From positions 3,060,001-3,092,000 of the forward strand of contig NZ_JAGIOS010000001.1 in assembly GCF_017876815.1 (NCBI RefSeq): DNA of 32,000 nucleotides, read 5' to 3'. The DNA is from Sinorhizobium meliloti. GTDB lineage: Bacteria; Pseudomonadota; Alphaproteobacteria; Rhizobiales; Rhizobiaceae. Shown here in pieces: positions 1,375 through 19,662 of this stretch; the stretch's first letter is position 1; each line of letters starts with the position of its first letter. A model generated the notes under the pieces. The model searched no databases, was not told where the DNA came from, and saw only the letters and a list, made by a program, of their open reading frames with translations. The translations under genes and the position numbers were made by a program.

Positions 1375-2639
1375 TGTTTAGCCCGGGGACATGGCGGACA
1401 CCTGTTCGGATACATCACTGACGGATTGCTTGTTGGTCAAGTTGATTGTTGCGATGTGATGGGCACCGAAGAAAGCGCCATAGTGGCCGTCGCGGTCGAG
1501 CGGGCGGATGGCGAGGCGTTCTCCGCAGAAAGCTTTGGGAACTTTCCATAGCCGGCCTTTGAAGCTGACATAGGCTTTGGTGGCGGAAACCTTGCGCACG
1601 ATCTCGCCCTCGTCATAGACGGGCTCGGGCAGGCGATCCGGCATGGCGCGCGGACTGGGGTGGTAGCGGCTGGCCGGCACGTCATGATCGAGTGCCCCAT
1701 GCGGGCGCTCGAAATTGTAAAGCTCGCGCCAGGCATCGAAGGCGCGCTGAACGGCAGCAAGATCCCTGAAACGGTCAAAGGCGAACACCTCGGCCTTGAG
1801 TGTGCGATGGAAGCGTTCATTCTTGCCACGGCTCTGCGGATGGTAGGGGCGACTGTGCAGTAGGGCGACGCCGAGCTTCAGAAGCCATACGCCGAGGCCG
1901 GTCCAGCCCTCGCCTGACGGATCGCCCCATGGCGCGCCATTATCCACGAACATGGCGTCCGGCAGCCCGTAGCGCCGGAATGTCCGCTCCAGATGGCCGC
2001 GTACGGTCGCGCCTCGCTGATCGGCGCAGGCCATGAGACAAGGCACGAAGCGGGAATGGTCATCGATCACCGTCAACGGGTGGCAGAGCGTGGCGTCGGC
2101 CAATTGCACCCAGCCCTTGAAATCCATTTGCCAGAGCTGGTTCGGCGCCTCCTTCTCGAAGCGCTGCAACGCCGGCGCGCCGCCCGGCGGTGCTACGATC
2201 CGATCATGGCGCTTGAGGATGGCATGAACGGTCGAAACCGCCGGCGGGTGGGTTCCCTGCCGTTCCAGATAGCCCACAATTTTGCGCGCCCCCCATGCCG
2301 GATGCGCATCGCGCACCCCAAGCACCTCGGTCTCTACCGCTTCGTTGCAACGCATCGGACTTATATGCGGGCGCCGTGAGCGATCCGCCAACTCGCGGTC
2401 GCCGGCTTCCCACCGCGCCAGCCATTTATAACCGATATCCGGGCTGATCCCGAACCGCCGGCACAATTCCCGCCGGTTCACACCCTCCTCAAGCGCAAGT
2501 CGCACAAACTCCCGCCGCTCTCCCATCGTCGATACCTCTCGCCACGGCATGGAATACCCCCTTCGAAGCCAAATCCATGCCAGTATGACGTGTCAGCCAT
2601 CTCCCCGAACACCCGTCAGTTATGTCCCCGGGCTAAACA
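1375..2639 (-). mobile_element. Complete IS481-family insertion sequence (1265 bp)
   Basis: Perfect 18-bp terminal inverted repeats TGTTTAGCCCGGGGACAT (1375-1392 and the reverse complement of 2622-2639). A 5-bp direct duplication ACCAG flanks it (1370-1374 and 2640-2644). A single DDE transposase ORF fills the element and its stop codon lies inside the left IR. Confidence 0.93.
1378..2550 (-). CDS. IS481-family DDE transposase (integrase/rve core)
   Basis: N-terminal HTH (CRRFGISPDIGYKWLARW). rve catalytic signature: WQMDFKG, VIDDHSRF, DNGAPW, SRPYHPQSRGKNERFHRTLK. An alternative start is ATG at 2526 (MGERREF), which has a GAGAGG Shine-Dalgarno sequence. Confidence 0.92.
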   Translation of the reverse strand: MPWREVSTMGERREFVRLALEEGVNRRELCRRFGISPDIGYKWLARWEAGDRELADRSRRPHISPMRCNEAVETEVLGVRDAHPAWGARKIVGYLERQGTHPPAVSTVHAILKRHDRIVAPPGGAPALQRFEKEAPNQLWQMDFKGWVQLADATLCHPLTVIDDHSRFVPCLMACADQRGATVRGHLERTFRRYGLPDAMFVDNGAPWGDPSGEGWTGLGVWLLKLGVALLHSRPYHPQSRGKNERFHRTLKAEVFAFDRFRDLAAVQRAFDAWRELYNFERPHGALDHDVPASRYHPSPRAMPDRLPEPVYDEGEIVRKVSATKAYVSFKGRLWKVPKAFCGERLAIRPLDRDGHYGAFFGAHHIATINLTNKQSVSDVSEQVSAMSPG

Positions 2640-13354: not shown

Positions 13355-13591
13355 CTAGTGCGCTTTAAGGCGCGCCTCCTCAGCGGCGGAAAGAAAGAGT
13401 CTGCGTGCTTCCTCGCAGGTACGGCGCCCGTCGATCGCGGCGCGGCACGCGCTGCGCGCGGCGACATAATAGGGGCCGCGATAAGGCCAATGGTCCGCGA
13501 GGCACCGGAGCGCATCGGACGGTCCCTTGACCATGCGCACGTCACCCCCGGTCATTCCAAGCTCGATGGGATTGCTCCACAAGACCTGCAT
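13355..13591 (-). CDS. DUF982 domain-containing protein
   Basis: 78 aa. The pattern W..PI......G..R.V.GPSDALRCL.DHWP...GP.Y..A...C..A..G....EEAR..F..AAEEA matches the rhizobial DUF982 family. Strong GGAGGAG RBS 4 nt upstream of the ATG. Confidence 0.75.
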   Translation of the reverse strand: MQVLWSNPIELGMTGGDVRMVKGPSDALRCLADHWPYRGPYYVAARSACRAAIDGRRTCEEARRLFLSAAEEARLKAH

Positions 13592-14025
13592 GCTTCTCCT
13601 CCTGGATTGCAGCGACGCGGCAATCGTGCCCCGCGTCGTGGGTATGTTCGGTTCCTATCGGGCGACAAGCGACGGACACCGGCTTCGACTGCCGCTTTCC
13701 CGCTCCCGGGATCATGTACAAGAACGCTGCCGGGTCAGCCCCGGTTCCCTGCCGCGAAAGGCCGGAGACCGAGCCAAGCGCTTCAATGTAGCTCAGGGAT
13801 TCCGGTTTGTCCGCAATTTTGCTGAAACACAATTTTGCTTCTGTCCGCCGCCGCTGCGGCCGACCGGATATCTTCGCCGGAAGGGGCGCTAGCTCATCGC
13901 CGAACAAGCCCTTATCTGGAGTTGTCCTTTCCTTCGCCACCCGCATTGCGCTGCATCCCCTTAAATGGCGGGGTTTCAAGCACTTGGCCCCCATTCTATA
14001 CCTTTTCTGCTGTTGGAGGGCTGGA

Positions 14026-14433: not shown

Positions 14434-15186
14434 TCAGTCGCTCGAAGTGGAAGCCGGGGTTTCTCCACCGCCTGAGCCGGTATCCTGGCCGCCGCCGGAG
14501 CCGCTGTCCTGACCGCCGCCGGAGCCTTCGCCACCGCCGGAGCCGCTATCCTGGCCGCCGCCGGAGCCAGTGTCCTGACCGCCGCCGGAGCCTTCGCCGC
14601 CGCCGGAGCCGCTATCCTGGCCACCACCGGAGCCGCTGTCCTGACCGCCGCCAGAGCCGGTATCCTGACCGCCACCTGAGCCGCTGTCCTGACCGCCGCC
14701 GGAGCCTTCGCCGCCGCCGGAGCCGCTATCCTGGCCACCACCGGAGCCGGTGTCCTGACCGCCGCCAGAGCCGGTATCCTGACCGCCACCTGAGCCGCTG
14801 TCCTGACCGCCGCCGGAGCCTTCGCCGCCGCCGGAGCCGCTATCCTGGCCACCACCGGAGCCGGTGTCCTGACCGCCGCCAGAGCCGGTATCCTGACCGC
14901 CACCAGAGCCGGTATCCTGGCCGCCGCCGGAGCCTTCGCCGCCGCCGGAGCCGCTATCCTGACCGCCGCTGGAACCGGTATCCTGGCCGCCACCTGAGCC
15001 AGTCTCCTGACTTCCGCCTGGCGCGCTGCCGGCGTCGGCAACGACAAGGACGTCACCATGAGGACCGGCGAGCGCTGTACTCTGACGCAGGCCGTCATCG
15101 AACGACGCTAGTGAGGCAAATGGCGTGGCAACGACATAGGCGAGACCAAGCAATGAGCCGATGATAGTTTTTCCTGTTCTACGCAT
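14434..15186 (-). CDS. Secreted glycine-rich tandem-repeat protein, (GSGGGQD[ST])n with GGGEGS punctuation
   Basis: Signal peptide MRRTGKTIIGSLLGLAYVVATPFASLA. GGAAGGAAG RBS. About 190 aa consist only of G/S/Q/D/T/E repeats. This frame and strand were chosen because they are the only ones with a signal peptide and an RBS. Confidence 0.6.
   Translation of the reverse strand: MRRTGKTIIGSLLGLAYVVATPFASLASFDDGLRQSTALAGPHGDVLVVADAGSAPGGSQETGSGGGQDTGSSGGQDSGSGGGEGSGGGQDTGSGGGQDTGSGGGQDTGSGGGQDSGSGGGEGSGGGQDSGSGGGQDTGSGGGQDTGSGGGQDSGSGGGEGSGGGQDSGSGGGQDTGSGGGQDSGSGGGQDSGSGGGEGSGGGQDTGSGGGQDSGSGGGEGSGGGQDSGSGGGQDTGSGGGETPASTSSD
14461..15010 (-). repeat. Coding tandem repeat array: 24-nt units nested in 114-nt higher-order units
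   Basis: The marker GGAGCCTTCGCC recurs at 14521, 14587, 14701, 14815 and 14929 (spacings 66, 114, 114, 114 nt). The three 114-nt units are nearly identical. Confidence 0.9.
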
Positions 15187-15554
15187 TGTCCTGCTTCCTT
15201 CCCTAAAGTTTAGGACATGTTTCGAACCTCAGCCTCCAGCGCGGCGCAGGATGGCACAGAAAGTGCTGGCTTACGCAAGAATATTATAACTGACTGATCT
15301 GCAACAGAATATCCAGTTGCAGGCGCCGAGAGCTGCCCGATTTTGGCCACAAGATACAATCGACAGTATTAATTGCGAAGGAACAATACATCCAATAATC
15401 TGGTTCTGATCTGTTTCTTCTATCGGTTATATTAACGATCTCTCTTTCACTCGACGATTGTGCACGTGATTTGCTACAAGCCTCGGACCGCTGCCGCATG
15501 TAGCAATGGCAACGCAAAACGGGTTAAAAGGGATCAAACGAGAGCTGACGAGAC

Positions 15555-16712
15555 ATGATGGAATCGGTGCAAACTGACGGGAAGAGGGGAGAAAACAGGT
15601 ACTTCAAGGCGCCTGTCTTTGCCGTGGCGCCTATGATCGACTGGACCGATCGTCATTATCGGTTCTTCGCGCGCCAGCTCTCGAGCCATGCTCTGCTCTA
15701 TACGGAAATGATCGTCGCGGATGCGATCCTGCGAGGCGACCGGGAAAAGCTGCTCGGCCACGACACCTCGGAACATCCGGTCGCCCTGCAGCTCGGCGGC
15801 AGCGATCCGGCGAAGATGGCGGAGGCGGCGCGGATCGCCGAAGGCTTCGGCTACGACGAGATCAACATGAATGTCGGCTGCCCATCAGACCGGGTGCAGT
15901 CCGGCACCTTCGGCGCTTGCCTGATGCAGGAGCCGGCGTTGGTCGCCGACTGCATCGCGGCGATGAAGGCGGCGGTCAAGATTCCCGTCACGGTCAAATG
16001 TCGCATCGGCGTCGACGATCAGGATCCGGAAGTAGCACTTCGCGACCTCGTCCAGCGTGTCAAGGATGCCGGAACGGATGCCGTCTGGGTGCATGCCCGC
16101 AAGGCATGGCTCAAAGGGCTGAGCCCGAGAGAGAATCGCGAGATTCCGCCGCTCGATTATGGCCTCGTACACCGGCTCAAGGCGGAAAATGCGAATCTTT
16201 TCATCGGTCTCAATGGGGGTCTTCAAAGGCTGGATCAGGCGCTATCCCACCTCGATCCGCTGTCGCTGCCGACGGGAGGAACCACCGGGACTGCGGCAGA
16301 GCCGGCGTGCGGTGCTCCTCTCGACGGCGTGATGCTCGGCCGTGCGGCCTATCACGACAGCGGCCTGCTGACGGCCGCCGACGGCTATTTCGTCCACCCG
16401 CTGACGGGGGCCGAGCCCATGCCGGTCGATCGCGACGGCTTTTCCGATCATGACCATAAACTGTCGCTGGATTTCTGGTCCGGGATTCGTGACGCCATGG
16501 CGGACTATGCCGCCGCGCATATCGAGAATGGCGGCCGGCTGATCCACGTCACGCGGCACATGGTCGGGCTCTTTCAGGGCTGGCCCGGCGCGCGGCGCTA
16601 TCGTCAGATACTCTCTACCGAGGCCACCCGCAAGGACGCCGGTCCGCAAGTGATCCATGCTGCCTTCGACGCGGTGTTCGAGGCGGTAACGGCAAGGCAG
16701 GCGGCAGAGTAG
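15555..16712 (+). CDS. dusA: tRNA-dihydrouridine synthase A
   Basis: FAVAPMIDWTDRHYRFFARQLS, LYTEMI, VALQLGGSDP, INMNVGCPSDRVQSGTFGACLM, VTVKCRIG, RHMVGLFQGWPGARRYRQ. These are the full DusA signature. Confidence 0.92.
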   Translation: MMESVQTDGKRGENRYFKAPVFAVAPMIDWTDRHYRFFARQLSSHALLYTEMIVADAILRGDREKLLGHDTSEHPVALQLGGSDPAKMAEAARIAEGFGYDEINMNVGCPSDRVQSGTFGACLMQEPALVADCIAAMKAAVKIPVTVKCRIGVDDQDPEVALRDLVQRVKDAGTDAVWVHARKAWLKGLSPRENREIPPLDYGLVHRLKAENANLFIGLNGGLQRLDQALSHLDPLSLPTGGTTGTAAEPACGAPLDGVMLGRAAYHDSGLLTAADGYFVHPLTGAEPMPVDRDGFSDHDHKLSLDFWSGIRDAMADYAAAHIENGGRLIHVTRHMVGLFQGWPGARRYRQILSTEATRKDAGPQVIHAAFDAVFEAVTARQAAE

Positions 16713-17581: not shown

Positions 17582-17802
17582 TAAGGTCTGTTGAGATTGA
17601 TCCTAGGAAACCTATCGGAGGACTGCAATCTCTCCTCCTCCTCATCTCTGTGCTCGTCACAGAGATCCAGCAGCGCCGCGTCTGCGGCGCGGGAAGAGTT
17701 CATTCAGCCCAAGGACTTGGTCTGGCTGGATCCCTGTGACGAGCACAGGGATGAGGAGATCGAACAAGCCGTGGCAGGTATCCCGAATCTCAACAGGCCT
17801 TA
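17582..17802 (+). repeat. Repeat family A, copy A3 (best preserved, 221 bp)
   Basis: Terminal inverted repeats TAAGGTCTGTTGAGATTG / GAATCTCAACAGGCCTTA (16 of 18 positions). Four internal hairpins: ATCTCTGTG-N5-CACAGAGAT; GCGCCGC-GTCT-GCGGCGC; CAGCCCAAG-GA-CTTGG(TCT)GGCTG; ATCCCTGTG-ACGAG-CACAGGGAT. Confidence 0.9.
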
Positions 17803-17883
17803 GGTTGAGCCTGCGCTCTCCCTACGGGCCTCGCGGGCTTGCTGCTGCCGCGGCGAACCGGTAGGTCTATACCGGAGACGAAT

Positions 17884-18501
17884 ATGCGAGTTGACGATGA
17901 GCAGGTGGCCGGCGTGATCGATCCCTATGCCCTCCTTGGAATTGAGCGCGACGCCGACGAACGGGCGGTCCGGACGGCCTACCGTCGGGCGGTGAAGACC
18001 GCGCATCCCGACCGCGGCGGTGATGCCGAGAAGTTCGGCAAGCTGCAGGCGGCCTACGACCTCCTGAAGGACCCAGTGCGCCGCAAAGTCTACGATGACA
18101 CCGGCTACGATCCGCAACTCGCCGACCCGAAAGACCTGAAGGGCCTGATGATGCTGGAGACGCTCGTCAACGATTTCATTCTCGACGAGCGCGAGCCCGG
18201 CAGTTTCGATCCGGTCGCGGCGATGCGGCGCAAGCTCTCCGACGACATCGTCAAGAACCGCTTCCACATTTTGGAACTGGAACGCCACCGCTCCCGCGTG
18301 CGCAAGCATCTCGACCGCCTCGGCCGGCGGCCCGAGACAGACGTGCTCGGCTCCATGCTGCGCGCCCGCAGCCAGTCGATCGCCGAGGCGATCAGGAATG
18401 CCGAAGCCCAGATCGAGGCGATCGAGCAGGCCTACACCATGCTCGAGGGATATTCCTACGAATTGGAAGCGGTGGAGGCGAAGGCGCGCGCGGCGGAGTA
18501 G
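17884..18501 (+). CDS. J-domain (DnaJ-like) protein, about 205 aa
   Basis: DPYALLGIERDADERAVRTAYRRAVKTAHPDRGGDAEKFGKLQAAYDLLKDPVRRKVYD is a complete J domain with the HPD motif. The C-terminal part is helical/coiled-coil. ATG 17884 has a GGAGA RBS; the upstream TTG at 17839 is less likely. Confidence 0.85.
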   Translation: MRVDDEQVAGVIDPYALLGIERDADERAVRTAYRRAVKTAHPDRGGDAEKFGKLQAAYDLLKDPVRRKVYDDTGYDPQLADPKDLKGLMMLETLVNDFILDEREPGSFDPVAAMRRKLSDDIVKNRFHILELERHRSRVRKHLDRLGRRPETDVLGSMLRARSQSIAEAIRNAEAQIEAIEQAYTMLEGYSYELEAVEAKARAAE

Positions 18502-18654
18502 AGCAGGTGCCGCCTGTCCATGCCAGGGTACCGCTCGTTGGAGCACTTCCACTGTGAAATAGGTTCCCGTCCGGCCGTGGTTACCTTCAGAGCTGGATGC
18601 TCGCCGGCAACGCACCCGGATCTGCACGCATGTAGTGCGCGTGGTCAGGGCGCG

Positions 18655-18690
18655 GACGTCGTGCCGGCTATGAAAAGCCGGCACGACGTC
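18655..18690. terminator. Perfect 15-bp hairpin between convergent genes (possible bidirectional terminator)
   Basis: GACGTCGTGCCGGCT-ATGAAA-AGCCGGCACGACGTC. It lies between the J-domain gene stop (18501) and the Gly-rich gene stop (18771). There are no flanking T/A tracts. Confidence 0.45.
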
Positions 18691-18770
18691 CTGGTCATTT
18701 GCGGTCGAGCGCTCTTGCAACCAATCCTTCAGTGGCCCGACTTCCCGCCATCGCGGTGATCGTGACCTGG

Positions 18771-19364
18771 TTAATCCTGATTACCTTTGAGGCCGCCATC
18801 TTGGCTGCCTTTGCCGTTGTCCTGGTTGCCGTTGTCCTGGCTGCCCTTGCCGTTGTCCTGGCTGCCTTTGCCGTTATCCTGGCTGCCCTTGCCATTGTCC
18901 TGGCTGCCCTTGCCGTTGTCCTGGTTGCCCTTGCCATGGTCTTGGTTACCCTTGCCGGTGTCTTGGCCACCGCCACCGCCGGGATCGCCGCCGCCGCCGC
19001 CGCCGCCACCGCCGCCACCGCCGCCACCGCCGCCGCCGCCACCGCCGCCGGGATTACCACCGCCGCCGTCATCGCCGTTCAGGTTGCGAGGACCGCTGTC
19101 GGTGGAGGTCGTGGAAAACGAATTTCCGATGGCCGCCGTGGAGAGGGGCGGGCATTGCTCTATTTGCCCGGCCGTGAGGATATCCGCTCTGTTCTGAGCC
19201 ATGCAGCATGCTTCGTAATTGGCGTCCGTCAGAGGGCTGCACTGCTCAGCCACGAGCATGGGGCCCGTAAGGTTCTGGGCGTGCGCGGGAATCGTTGTCG
19301 AAGTTGAAAAACCGACCATCAGAGCCAGGCCGGTGCTCGTAAGAAATACATCCAGGGTTTTCAT
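18771..19364 (-). CDS. Secreted protein with a Cys-containing N-domain, a poly-Gly tract and GKG[SN]QDN heptad repeats
   Basis: Signal peptide MKTLDVFLTSTGLALMVGFSTSTTIPAHA. GGAGA RBS. Four Cys in the first 45 mature residues. A Gly-dominated stretch (about 35 Gly, broken only by N, P, D and P) leads into GGGGGQDTG, followed by (GKGSQDN)n. Confidence 0.6.
   Translation of the reverse strand: MKTLDVFLTSTGLALMVGFSTSTTIPAHAQNLTGPMLVAEQCSPLTDANYEACCMAQNRADILTAGQIEQCPPLSTAAIGNSFSTTSTDSGPRNLNGDDGGGGNPGGGGGGGGGGGGGGGGGGGGGDPGGGGGQDTGKGNQDHGKGNQDNGKGSQDNGKGSQDNGKGSQDNGKGSQDNGNQDNGKGSQDGGLKGNQD
18801..19070 (-). repeat. Coding 21-nt tandem repeats (18801-18965) followed by a (GCC/ACC)n triplet tract (18966-19070)
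   Basis: Units such as GGCTGCCCTTGCCGTTGTCCT repeat about 8 times. An almost pure CCG/CCA triplet run encoding poly-Gly on the minus strand follows. Confidence 0.9.
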
Positions 19365-19662
19365 GTTTTTCTCCCTAAATTAGTGTCAACTTAAATTCGA
19401 ACCGGGAGAGAAATGTTCCATAAAAATTTATGGGTTTGAGTGGTATGTCGGGCTAATCATTTCGGATTACCACTAAAAAAAGGGGGTAGTTAGCGTATCC
19501 TTGGACGCGTTCTTACGGCCGCCTCTTGCAGCGACCCTCTCGAGCAATTCGACGGTCCGGAAAGGCCCAGCACCGGGTGGAGCCGGTTGCGACTGCGGCG
19601 GCAGCGAGTGCTTCGTGATCGGTAAGCGGCTCAGCAGATCGTCGGATTCTGATACGACCGGC

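Follow-up and report, generated by a model that had tools for sequence, protein, structure and literature searches.

The SMc04232 Locus

We analyzed a 32,000-nucleotide stretch of the Sinorhizobium meliloti chromosome (assembly GCF_017876815.1, contig NZ_JAGIOS010000001.1, positions 3,060,001 to 3,092,000 of the forward strand), here called the window, and concentrate on an open reading frame (ORF) on its minus strand, at 18771-19364, that begins with ATG and encodes 197 amino acids followed by a stop codon. Judged from its sequence, this ORF is the orthologue of the S. meliloti gene SMc04232, and its product appears to be a stress-induced, exported protein in which a small four-cysteine head, belonging to an uncatalogued domain family, precedes a glycine-rich tail. 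Other genes of the window include znuC, zur, dusA, a csp gene, a J-domain gene, and uvrB. The parts of the coding region are as follows.

18771-19364, minus strand: coding sequence of the SMc04232 orthologue, 197 amino acids plus stop (ORF, translation, homology)
19275-19364, minus strand: putative signal peptide, residues 1-30, predicted cleavage between AHA and QN (inspection, hydropathy)
19101-19274, minus strand: head domain, residues 31-88, with the core C42-C71 at 19152-19241, then CPPLSTAAIGNSFSTTST (conservation, structure prediction)
18966-19067, minus strand: poly-Gly linker, residues 100-133, G4-NP-G21-DP-G5 (GGC/GGT triplet tract)
18774-18965, minus strand: acidic heptad repeats, residues 134-197 (QDTGKGN, QDHGKGN, QDNGKGS x4 and so on; 21-nt units)

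In strain Sm1021, SMc04232 is annotated as a "hypothetical glycine rich transmembrane protein" at 2059036-2059614, which corresponds to 192 amino acids, and adjoins uvrB (SMc04231) (PMC3616915). The window gene resembles it in lying between uvrB and the J-domain gene SMc04233 and in having an identical promoter, spacer, -10 box, transcription start site (TSS) context, and antisense promoter; it differs in encoding 197 rather than 192 residues, so that the repeat length is not the same. The head is 100% identical to that of S. meliloti proteins, and a collection of 15 billion proteins does not contain the exact window protein.

Several features indicate that the ORF is a genuine gene. The G+C content at third codon positions is highest in its frame (0.72, versus 0.64 and 0.55 in the others), and the ratio of nonsynonymous to synonymous substitution (dN/dS) in the head, measured against ten species, is 0.12-0.25, indicating purifying selection. 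The ORF is intact in all orthologues except those truncated by a contig end, and nine species have flanks long enough to show the gene order, all nine sharing uvrB, SMc04232, J-domain gene (convergent), csp, dusA. Other long overlapping ORFs (18699-19307 on the plus strand, 18787-19197 on the plus strand, and 18695-19072 on the minus strand) are Ala/Pro/Arg-type read-throughs of the same repeats. An initial annotation of this stretch, made from sequence without database searches, had described a 197-residue ORF with a signal peptide, a four-Cys head, a poly-Gly tract, and 21-nt repeats, and this layout is confirmed. It had also named a head without homologues and an ORF disrupted in close relatives as marks of noncoding simple sequence; neither was observed, since homologues were found and the ORF is intact.

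A Family of Four-Cysteine Head Domains

The N-terminus, MKTLDVFLTSTGLALMVGFSTSTTIPAHA followed by QN, displays on inspection and by hydropathy the n-h-c layout and AxA site of a Sec signal peptide. The orthologues also have small residues at -3 and -1 (ARA/Q, ARG/Q, ASS/Q), and 48 of the 75 family cores carry Gln at +1. The protein is thus probably exported by Sec and cleaved after AHA, and the secreted status given to it initially agrees with the combination of a signal peptide and four invariant cysteines, which is typical of extracytoplasmic proteins.

The protein has exactly four cysteines (C42, C53, C54, and C71), and their spacing, C-x10-CC-x16-C, is unvarying across 75 distinct cores, in which C, L, CC, A, and C are invariant. 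The consensus of these cores is Q-C-x-P-L-T-x-x-N-Y-x-x-C-C-x-A-x-N-R-x-x-I-L-T-x-x-Q-x-x-Q-C-P-P-L-T-T, and SMc04232 shows the pattern by which we delimit the family, namely a signal peptide and then QC-PLT-N(Y/F)-CC-A-NR-(I/L)L(T/S)-Q-CPP(L/I)TT with the cysteine spacing above. A profile built from five Sinorhizobium heads retrieved 54 representatives at 50% identity from among 1.8 billion proteins (hidden Markov model E = 1e-53 to 1e-4), so the head does have homologues; the named ones belong to Chelativorans, Mesorhizobium, and Phyllobacterium. By these comparisons the head defines a family so far seen only in the Hyphomicrobiales. Searches of Pfam and NCBIfam with the protein and its relatives returned no match, nor did a PDB sequence profile or a Foldseek search with the head model, the domain possibly being too small for Foldseek.

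AlphaFold2 (AF2), run with 40 sequences, models the head core as short helices with a predicted local distance difference test score (pLDDT) of 88-89, consistent with a small helical domain of about 45 residues. The head is presumably clamped by two disulfides, as would be expected of an exported protein with four cysteines. The earlier description of the head as "Cys-knot-like" is not supported: a cystine knot has six or more cysteines in three knotted disulfides and is impossible with four, and the model consists of short helices.

Several distant members of the family (P0017, P0023, P0030, P0039, P0044, and others) share a C-terminal motif of approximately N-x-G-x-G-N-G-G-E ... D-P-G-N-S-G-x-(H/N)-N-N; the Sinorhizobium family proteins are without this second motif.

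The Glycine-Rich Tail

The poly-Gly linker is encoded by GGC and GGT codons on the minus strand, which read as the GCC/ACC tract of the initial annotation on the plus strand; Tandem Repeats Finder (TRF) reports it as 21.7 copies of period 3 at 18986-19050. After GGGGGQDTG come seven full GKG[NS]QD[HNG] heptads and two degenerate units, reported by TRF as 6.8 copies of period 21 with 87% matches at 18826-18967. The mature protein, of approximately 15.8 kDa, has a pI of 4.3, 31.5% Gly, and a grand average of hydropathy (GRAVY) of -1.16.

Tail sequence is not conserved between species, and tail composition is. In ten species the tails contain 42-61% Gly and carry a net charge of -3 to -36. The meliloti, medicae, saheli, and shofinae group has GKGNQDx as its repeat unit; S. 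psoraleae and its relative have DPDNGDD, and the S. terangae group has units of the GGDVGGGVSEEG type; the tails of more distant relatives consist of G/S, G/A, G/D, or even His/Asp repeats. Composition kept without sequence conservation is the pattern expected of a physical, disordered module. In the full-length AF2 model the tail has a pLDDT of 36-46 and no secondary structure, in keeping with the disorder proposed initially, and these approximately 100 residues are predicted to be intrinsically disordered, highly hydrophilic, and net acidic. We considered RTX nonapeptides (GGxGxDxUx, period 9) and rejected them, given the period of 7, the lack of a hydrophobic position, and the absence of a Pfam match.

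Variation in Repeat Length and Assembly Artifacts

Among finished genomes the protein is 192 amino acids long in Sm1021, 197 in the window, 215 in Ak57, and 194 in Sinorhizobium sp. C101. All of these changes are in frame and no variant switches frame, which bears out the expectation of in-frame repeat variation between strains. The longest G run is 21 in the window, 31 in Ak57, and 38 in C101; the Ak57 allele has one extra heptad, and the unit count ranges from 7 to 11 among alleles.

The databases also hold many alleles of 158-174 amino acids in which every G run is of four residues or fewer. All come from draft assemblies, whereas the finished genomes have runs of 21-38, and we therefore discount these alleles as evidence of slippage; they are probably artifacts of repeat collapse. 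Slippage-type variation is real, but it is overstated by public short-read data. Two Logan contigs (L011 and L012, compared with window positions 17732-19037) are chimeras joined inside the (GGC)n tract, in which the head of a paralogue, SMc04357, with its own neighborhood (described below) is fused to the SMc04232 tail and the J-domain gene. Database proteins such as P0031, P0001, and P0002 are likewise artifacts, the last two being truncated or chimeric at the tract. The practical warning is that draft assemblies collapse or mis-join the SMc04232 locus.

Promoter, Transcript, and Flanking Elements

The following elements flank or overlap the coding sequence.

19393-19419, minus strand: RpoE2 (EcfG-type) promoter, -35 GGAACAT (19413-19419), 14-nt spacer, -10 GAATTT (19393-19398); identical to the published SMc04232 promoter
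19386, minus strand: TSS, giving a 22-nt 5' untranslated region (UTR); transferred by identical sequence from the Sm1021 RNA-seq site SMc_TSS06225
19368-19383, minus strand: invariant 5'-UTR and ribosome-binding site (RBS) block CTAATTTAGGGAGAAA with Shine-Dalgarno GGGAG (conservation)
18655-18690, minus strand: 15-bp perfect stem with a 6-nt loop, 80 nt past the stop codon (fold prediction)
19154-19191, plus strand: sigma-70 promoter ATTGCT-N18-GGATAT and TSS (19191) of the antisense RNA SMc_asRNA_1559; published, sequence present in the window

Published data and sequence identity together show that SMc04232 is transcribed by the general-stress sigma factor RpoE2 from an EcfG-type promoter, and it would accordingly be made under conditions that activate RpoE2. 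Schlueter et al. (2013) found that the gene depends on rpoE2, whose overexpression in Sm1021 gave a log ratio of 3.29 (PMC3616915). For SMc04232 Table S19 of that work lists the -35 box GGAACAT, the spacer TTCTCTCCCGGTTC, the -10 box GAATTT, and the discriminator AAGTTGA (PMC3616915), which is exactly the sequence of the window at 19386-19419, and RNA-seq places SMc_TSS06225 at 2059014 in Sm1021, 22 nt before the ATG (PMC3616915). We first found the GGAAC motif by phylogenetic footprinting, independently of that source: all 13 orthologous loci have GGAAC-N15-17-N[AG]TT at the same position relative to the coding region. These loci comprise those of ten species in GTDB genomes, two more from strains Ak57 and C101, and one on a metagenome contig. 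The promoter has the features that mark the RpoE2/EcfG regulon (GGAAC, 16-17 nt spacing, and a -10 of the (C/G)(G/A)TT type), in the same format as the other promoters of Table S19. EcfG-type motifs also lie upstream of the family loci L018, L020, L022, L027/32/37, L028, and L031, some linked to a peptidase gene discussed below and some unlinked; stress control therefore recurs within the family. The link to stress suggested initially was right, SMc04232 being an RpoE2 general-stress target.

The leader of the transcript is also conserved. A 13-nt block, CTAA(A/T)TTAGGGAG, is invariant in 11 species, and its flanks diverge. In the 32-kb window the pattern CTAA-N1-4-TTAGGGA has just two copies (0.00 expected by chance), at 15200-15213 and 19372-19383, both on the minus strand and both immediately upstream of a start codon, that of the nearby gene rns2 and that of SMc04232. 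The 5' motif of the two genes, CTAATTTAGGGA, may be a shared RBS or regulatory element. For six of the ten species, mainly the closest, synonymous divergence (dS) is 0.2-0.3 in the signal-peptide codons versus 0.8-1.8 in the head. Together with the invariant block, this low dS hints at nucleotide-level constraint on the translation-initiation region.

Folding of the 136 nt at 18640-18775 gives -63.7 kcal/mol (z = -4.7). The hairpin, located between SMc04232 and the convergent J-domain gene, is probably a terminator or 3'-end structure and is likely shared by the two. A Sm1021 probe set for the intergenic region 3' of SMc04232 is reported as rpoE2-dependent, with a log ratio of 1.95 (PMC3616915). 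SMc_asRNA_1559, which the same work lists among its supplementary promoters and mentions in the text (PMC3616915), lies opposite the head-coding part of the gene. The -10 box of its promoter is not conserved in Ak57, C101, or the other species compared, and because it is not kept even within the species we give this RNA little weight and dropped a conserved antisense regulator from consideration.

Three further observations concern the surroundings of the gene. A second RpoE2-type promoter, GGAACCGGGGCTGACCCGGCAGCGTTC, lies at 13722-13748 on the minus strand before the ORF at 13355-13591 (minus strand) and is identical to the Table S19 promoter of SMc04238, a 78-residue conserved hypothetical protein (PMC3616915); a GGAAC-N17-GTTC sequence at 15380-15406 on the plus strand, approximately 150 nt upstream of dusA (15555-16712), is an EcfG-like candidate of a kind for which 0.9 matches per window are expected by chance. 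The window carries an IS481-family transposase gene at 1378-2550 (minus strand), and Ak57 has a copy of ISRm20 (IS481-like) just past the J-domain gene (L014, 3114-3263); insertion sequence content around the locus thus differs between strains. An Rfam scan of the whole window returned no match.

A Paralogue and Its Peptidase Neighbor

The true paralogue of SMc04232 is SMc04357 ("glycine-rich protein"), approximately 180 kb away. In Ak57 it has 301 residues, with a head 39% identical to that of SMc04232, a G16 run, 17 DNGGGGGG octads, and then GKGxQDx heptads. The two proteins have in common the signal peptide, the C-x10-CC-x16-C head, a poly-G run, and the GKGxQDx heptads; SMc04357 differs in lying beside peptidase and MacB genes and in having predicted CtrA boxes in place of a GGAAC promoter. 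The Ak57 annotation starts SMc04357 at an internal Met, so that the signal peptide and most of the head are lost, and the Ak57 record concerned (L013; CP090106.1, 2326596-2327501) is labeled "plasmid pSymB" although, at 3.72 Mb and carrying uvrB and other chromosomal genes, it is the chromosome.

SMc04357 divergently adjoins SMc04352, which encodes a bacterial transglutaminase-like cysteine peptidase (BTLCP; PF06035). Its homology to Legionella LapG (PDB 4FGO) extends to the catalytic Cys motif, GDCEDFAI. It is this BTLCP/MacB neighborhood that is fused to the SMc04232 tail in the chimeric contigs. Divergent pairs of this kind are also present in Chelativorans, in a metagenome-assembled genome of Mesorhizobium, and in two other contigs; of the 22 metagenome loci that a degenerate DNA pattern brought up, 18 show the pairing. 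Overall, PF06035 is divergently adjacent in 23 of the 29 family loci outside the uvrB locus, representing 12 lineages at 80% core identity, as against none of the 13 uvrB-type loci, SMc04232 included. This genomic association between the head family and BTLCPs is unreported and statistically strong; a substrate or partner relationship between them is a lead, not a result.

BTLCPs are periplasmic, Ca2+-dependent enzymes, of which LapG cuts adhesins at a di-alanine site (PAAG or AAAG) just after a stable, folded N-terminal module. HvyA, an alphaproteobacterial BTLCP, restricts capsulation in Caulobacter through unknown targets; HvyA-type BTLCPs are controlled by CtrA and MucR, and the S. meliloti BTLCP that partly substitutes for HvyA is SMc00998, not SMc04352. 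Table S15 of the transcriptome study lists predicted CtrA-binding motifs in the shared SMc04352-SMc04357 promoter region (Sm1021 2236719-2236756; L013 3831-4000) (PMC3616915).

Proposed Function

The explanation that we favor for the whole, with a confidence somewhat better than even, is that SMc04232 encodes a stress-induced, exported head-plus-tail protein in which the head docks onto an envelope partner and the tail is hydrophilin-like. RpoE2 transcribes the gene from its EcfG-type promoter, and Sec would export the product, with cleavage after AHA leaving a protein of about 16 kDa. The conserved head would be the specific part, docking the protein to the envelope partner, and the tail would act as a hydrated, flexible, cation-binding polymer of the hydrophilin type, to judge by its composition, its predicted disorder, and the regulon. 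Selection would act on tail composition and not on sequence, such that triplet and 21-nt slippage could alter the length, and even the repeat type, of the tail between strains and species. The partner or processing enzyme of the head would most likely be the S. meliloti BTLCP SMc04352, a choice made purely on family-wide gene neighborhood, because a periplasmic BTLCP is the usual genomic partner of the family. SMc04232 would then be a relocated paralogue that has kept its head and is expressed under stress. The protein would thus most likely serve in the periplasm or envelope under stress, with a tail resembling hydrophilins, and might be a partner or substrate of a BTLCP.

Hydrophilins, in the definition attributed to Garay-Arroyo and colleagues (2000), have more than 6% Gly and a high hydrophilicity index, and the mature SMc04232 protein, with 31.5% Gly and a GRAVY of -1.16, lies within these limits. 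Hydrophilins are also marked by accumulating when water is scarce and by protecting the cell, traits toward which RpoE2 control of SMc04232 points only indirectly. It resembles hydrophilins and LEA-like proteins in being Gly-rich, strongly hydrophilic, predicted to be disordered, and under general-stress sigma control; it differs in that classical bacterial hydrophilins are cytoplasmic and are without a disulfide domain. The protein had no match to Pfam KGG, CsbD, or LEA and showed no sequence homology to hydrophilin-type families.

Several points weigh against this interpretation. The signal peptide was assigned by eye, and the Sm1021 annotation says "transmembrane." The low pLDDT of the tail may reflect a shallow, low-complexity alignment instead of true disorder; poly-Gly may form polyglycine II structures, and the repeats of the neighboring Gly-rich protein Rns2 were modeled by the authors who described it as a beta-repeat domain (PMC11290524). 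The hydrophilin-like role is drawn entirely from composition and regulon membership. SMc04232 itself does not lie beside a BTLCP gene, the connection running through head homology to a paralogue with which it has 39% identity.

A different emphasis, which we regard as possible but short of probable, is that SMc04232 is chiefly a substrate or regulator of a BTLCP and that its tail is cargo or signal rather than a stress protectant. As a substrate, the head and the T-A-A-I junction at residues 76-79 would mimic the arrangement of a retention module plus di-alanine site, cleavage freeing the Gly-rich tail; as a regulator, the head would sequester or target the protease, as LapD does LapG. The divergent BTLCP pairing in 12 lineages is consistent with such a role, as is the parallel with the LapG/LapA and HvyA systems. 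The typical neighbor of the family is a LapG-homologous BTLCP, and in both cases a folded N-terminal module (cut in LapG substrates by a Ca2+-requiring enzyme) leads through a small-residue junction, C-P-P-L-T-T-[AS]-x-[IV] in the family, into a long extended region. In SMc04232 the sequence PLS-TAAI-G stands right past the last Cys, and the tails are Asp-rich; the targets of HvyA, moreover, are still unknown. The di-alanine is not conserved, however, with the variants TASI, TALI, TTSLI, and TTASI and a consensus of T-[AS]-x-[IV], and the (T/P/A)AAG site after the retention module of a type I secretion system (T1SS) adhesin is not found. Known substrates are giant T1SS adhesins, not small proteins that, like those of the family, appear to be exported by Sec and are without RTX features or a C-terminal secretion signal. 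Of the genes called at the BTLCP-linked loci examined, none encodes LapD; SMc04232 is unlinked to any BTLCP, and SMc04352 and SMc04357 are not among the RpoE2 supplementary-table entries searched (PMC3616915).

An improbable alternative is that the protein is a periplasmic buffer or chaperone of divalent cations, its Asp/Asn/Gln heptads, like the His/Asp repeats of relatives, binding Ca2+, Zn2+, or similar ions. The tails are acidic in all species, with a net charge down to -36, and BTLCPs are Ca2+-dependent. One BTLCP-linked relative (L029, metagenome contig Ga0056909_1000021) carries a 200-residue His/Asp-rich tail of DRDHHDGDRDHH repeats, which suggests metal binding in at least some family members. 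For SMc04232 the period of 7 without a hydrophobic position excludes RTX nonapeptides, and no recognized metal-binding motif is present; some tails of the family, moreover, are near-uncharged Gly/Ser/Ala sequences (L004, L007, and L040), and there was no sign of Zur-type regulation despite the presence of znuC and zur in the window at a distance of 8-9 kb.

The ORF at 14434-15186 on the minus strand is rns2 (SMc04236), which encodes 250 amino acids, as in Sm1021, and lies 3.6 kb from SMc04232 on the same strand. Rns2 is a Gly-rich octapeptide-repeat protein required for the nodulation restriction mediated by the NS2 receptor kinase in Medicago and is a known determinant of host specificity (Sci Adv 2024, PMC11290524). 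The initial annotation had taken the motif GGGQDTG as a sign that the two genes form one family. In that case SMc04232 would belong with Rns2 to one family of extracellular Gly-rich repeat proteins and would be a polymorphic determinant, on the surface or secreted, that host receptor kinases recognize; we find this quite improbable. Both proteins have a hydrophobic segment near the N-terminus and tandem repeats that are rich in Gly and built on a QD core, and both genes carry the rare CTAA-N-TTAGGGA motif in the 5' UTR. Both are polymorphic in length and sequence between species, the repeats of each differing between S. meliloti and S. medicae. GGGQDTG is the longest string common to the two; such a 7-mer is shared in 1.2% of tail shuffles, a figure that overstates its significance because shuffling residues destroys the QD periodicity. 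Yet BLASTP of SMc04232 against Rns2 gave E = 15 with no head homology, and DNA matches are confined to (GGC)n. In the nine other species for which full flanks were available, the surroundings of the orthologue out to 6 kb contain nothing resembling rns2. We rejected kinship, and shared synteny within that distance as well. Rns2 is without the Cys head, and the tandem (T/S/E)GSGGGQD octapeptides and homologous N-terminus that distinguish it are not found in SMc04232, in which the repeats are GKG[NS]QDx heptads, of period 7 rather than 8. Regulation of the two genes also differs in the literature, rns2 being reported as an ExoS/ChvI target (PMC11290524) and SMc04232 as an RpoE2 target. Of the initial picture as a whole, then, secretion, disorder, homologues, in-frame variation, and the stress link stand, and the Cys knot and kinship to rns2 do not. 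Finally, the idea that triplet repeats in noncoding simple sequence merely create a spurious ORF draws on the long ORFs that overlap the repeats in other frames, but it can be set aside as having almost no likelihood, given a head conserved across genera under purifying selection, a published TSS and rpoE2-dependent mRNA, and an ORF open in every complete orthologue.

Significance

The existence of SMc04232 is not news: it is an already annotated gene, catalogued as an RpoE2 target, and because it belongs to a known regulon it is ordinary as a find. What is new is an uncatalogued domain family, so far of the Hyphomicrobiales, and a small candidate partner or substrate for BTLCPs, enzymes that control adhesin release (LapG) and capsulation (HvyA). 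As a more speculative suggestion, which we think unlikely, the head could serve for recognition in a new class of small proteins, exported by Sec, that are partners or substrates of orphan alphaproteobacterial BTLCPs. SMc04232 would be the stress-induced member, processed by or titrating SMc04352. The outcome would be the release or display of an acidic, Gly-rich peptide, specific to the strain, which would remodel the envelope or capsule and might be perceived by the host, in parallel to Rns2. A host-facing role is possible for this second polymorphic, secreted Gly/QD-repeat protein, and its location only 3.6 kb from the host-compatibility gene rns2 makes SMc04232 a reasonable candidate for a part in strain-by-host specificity and in the survival of inoculants during desiccation.

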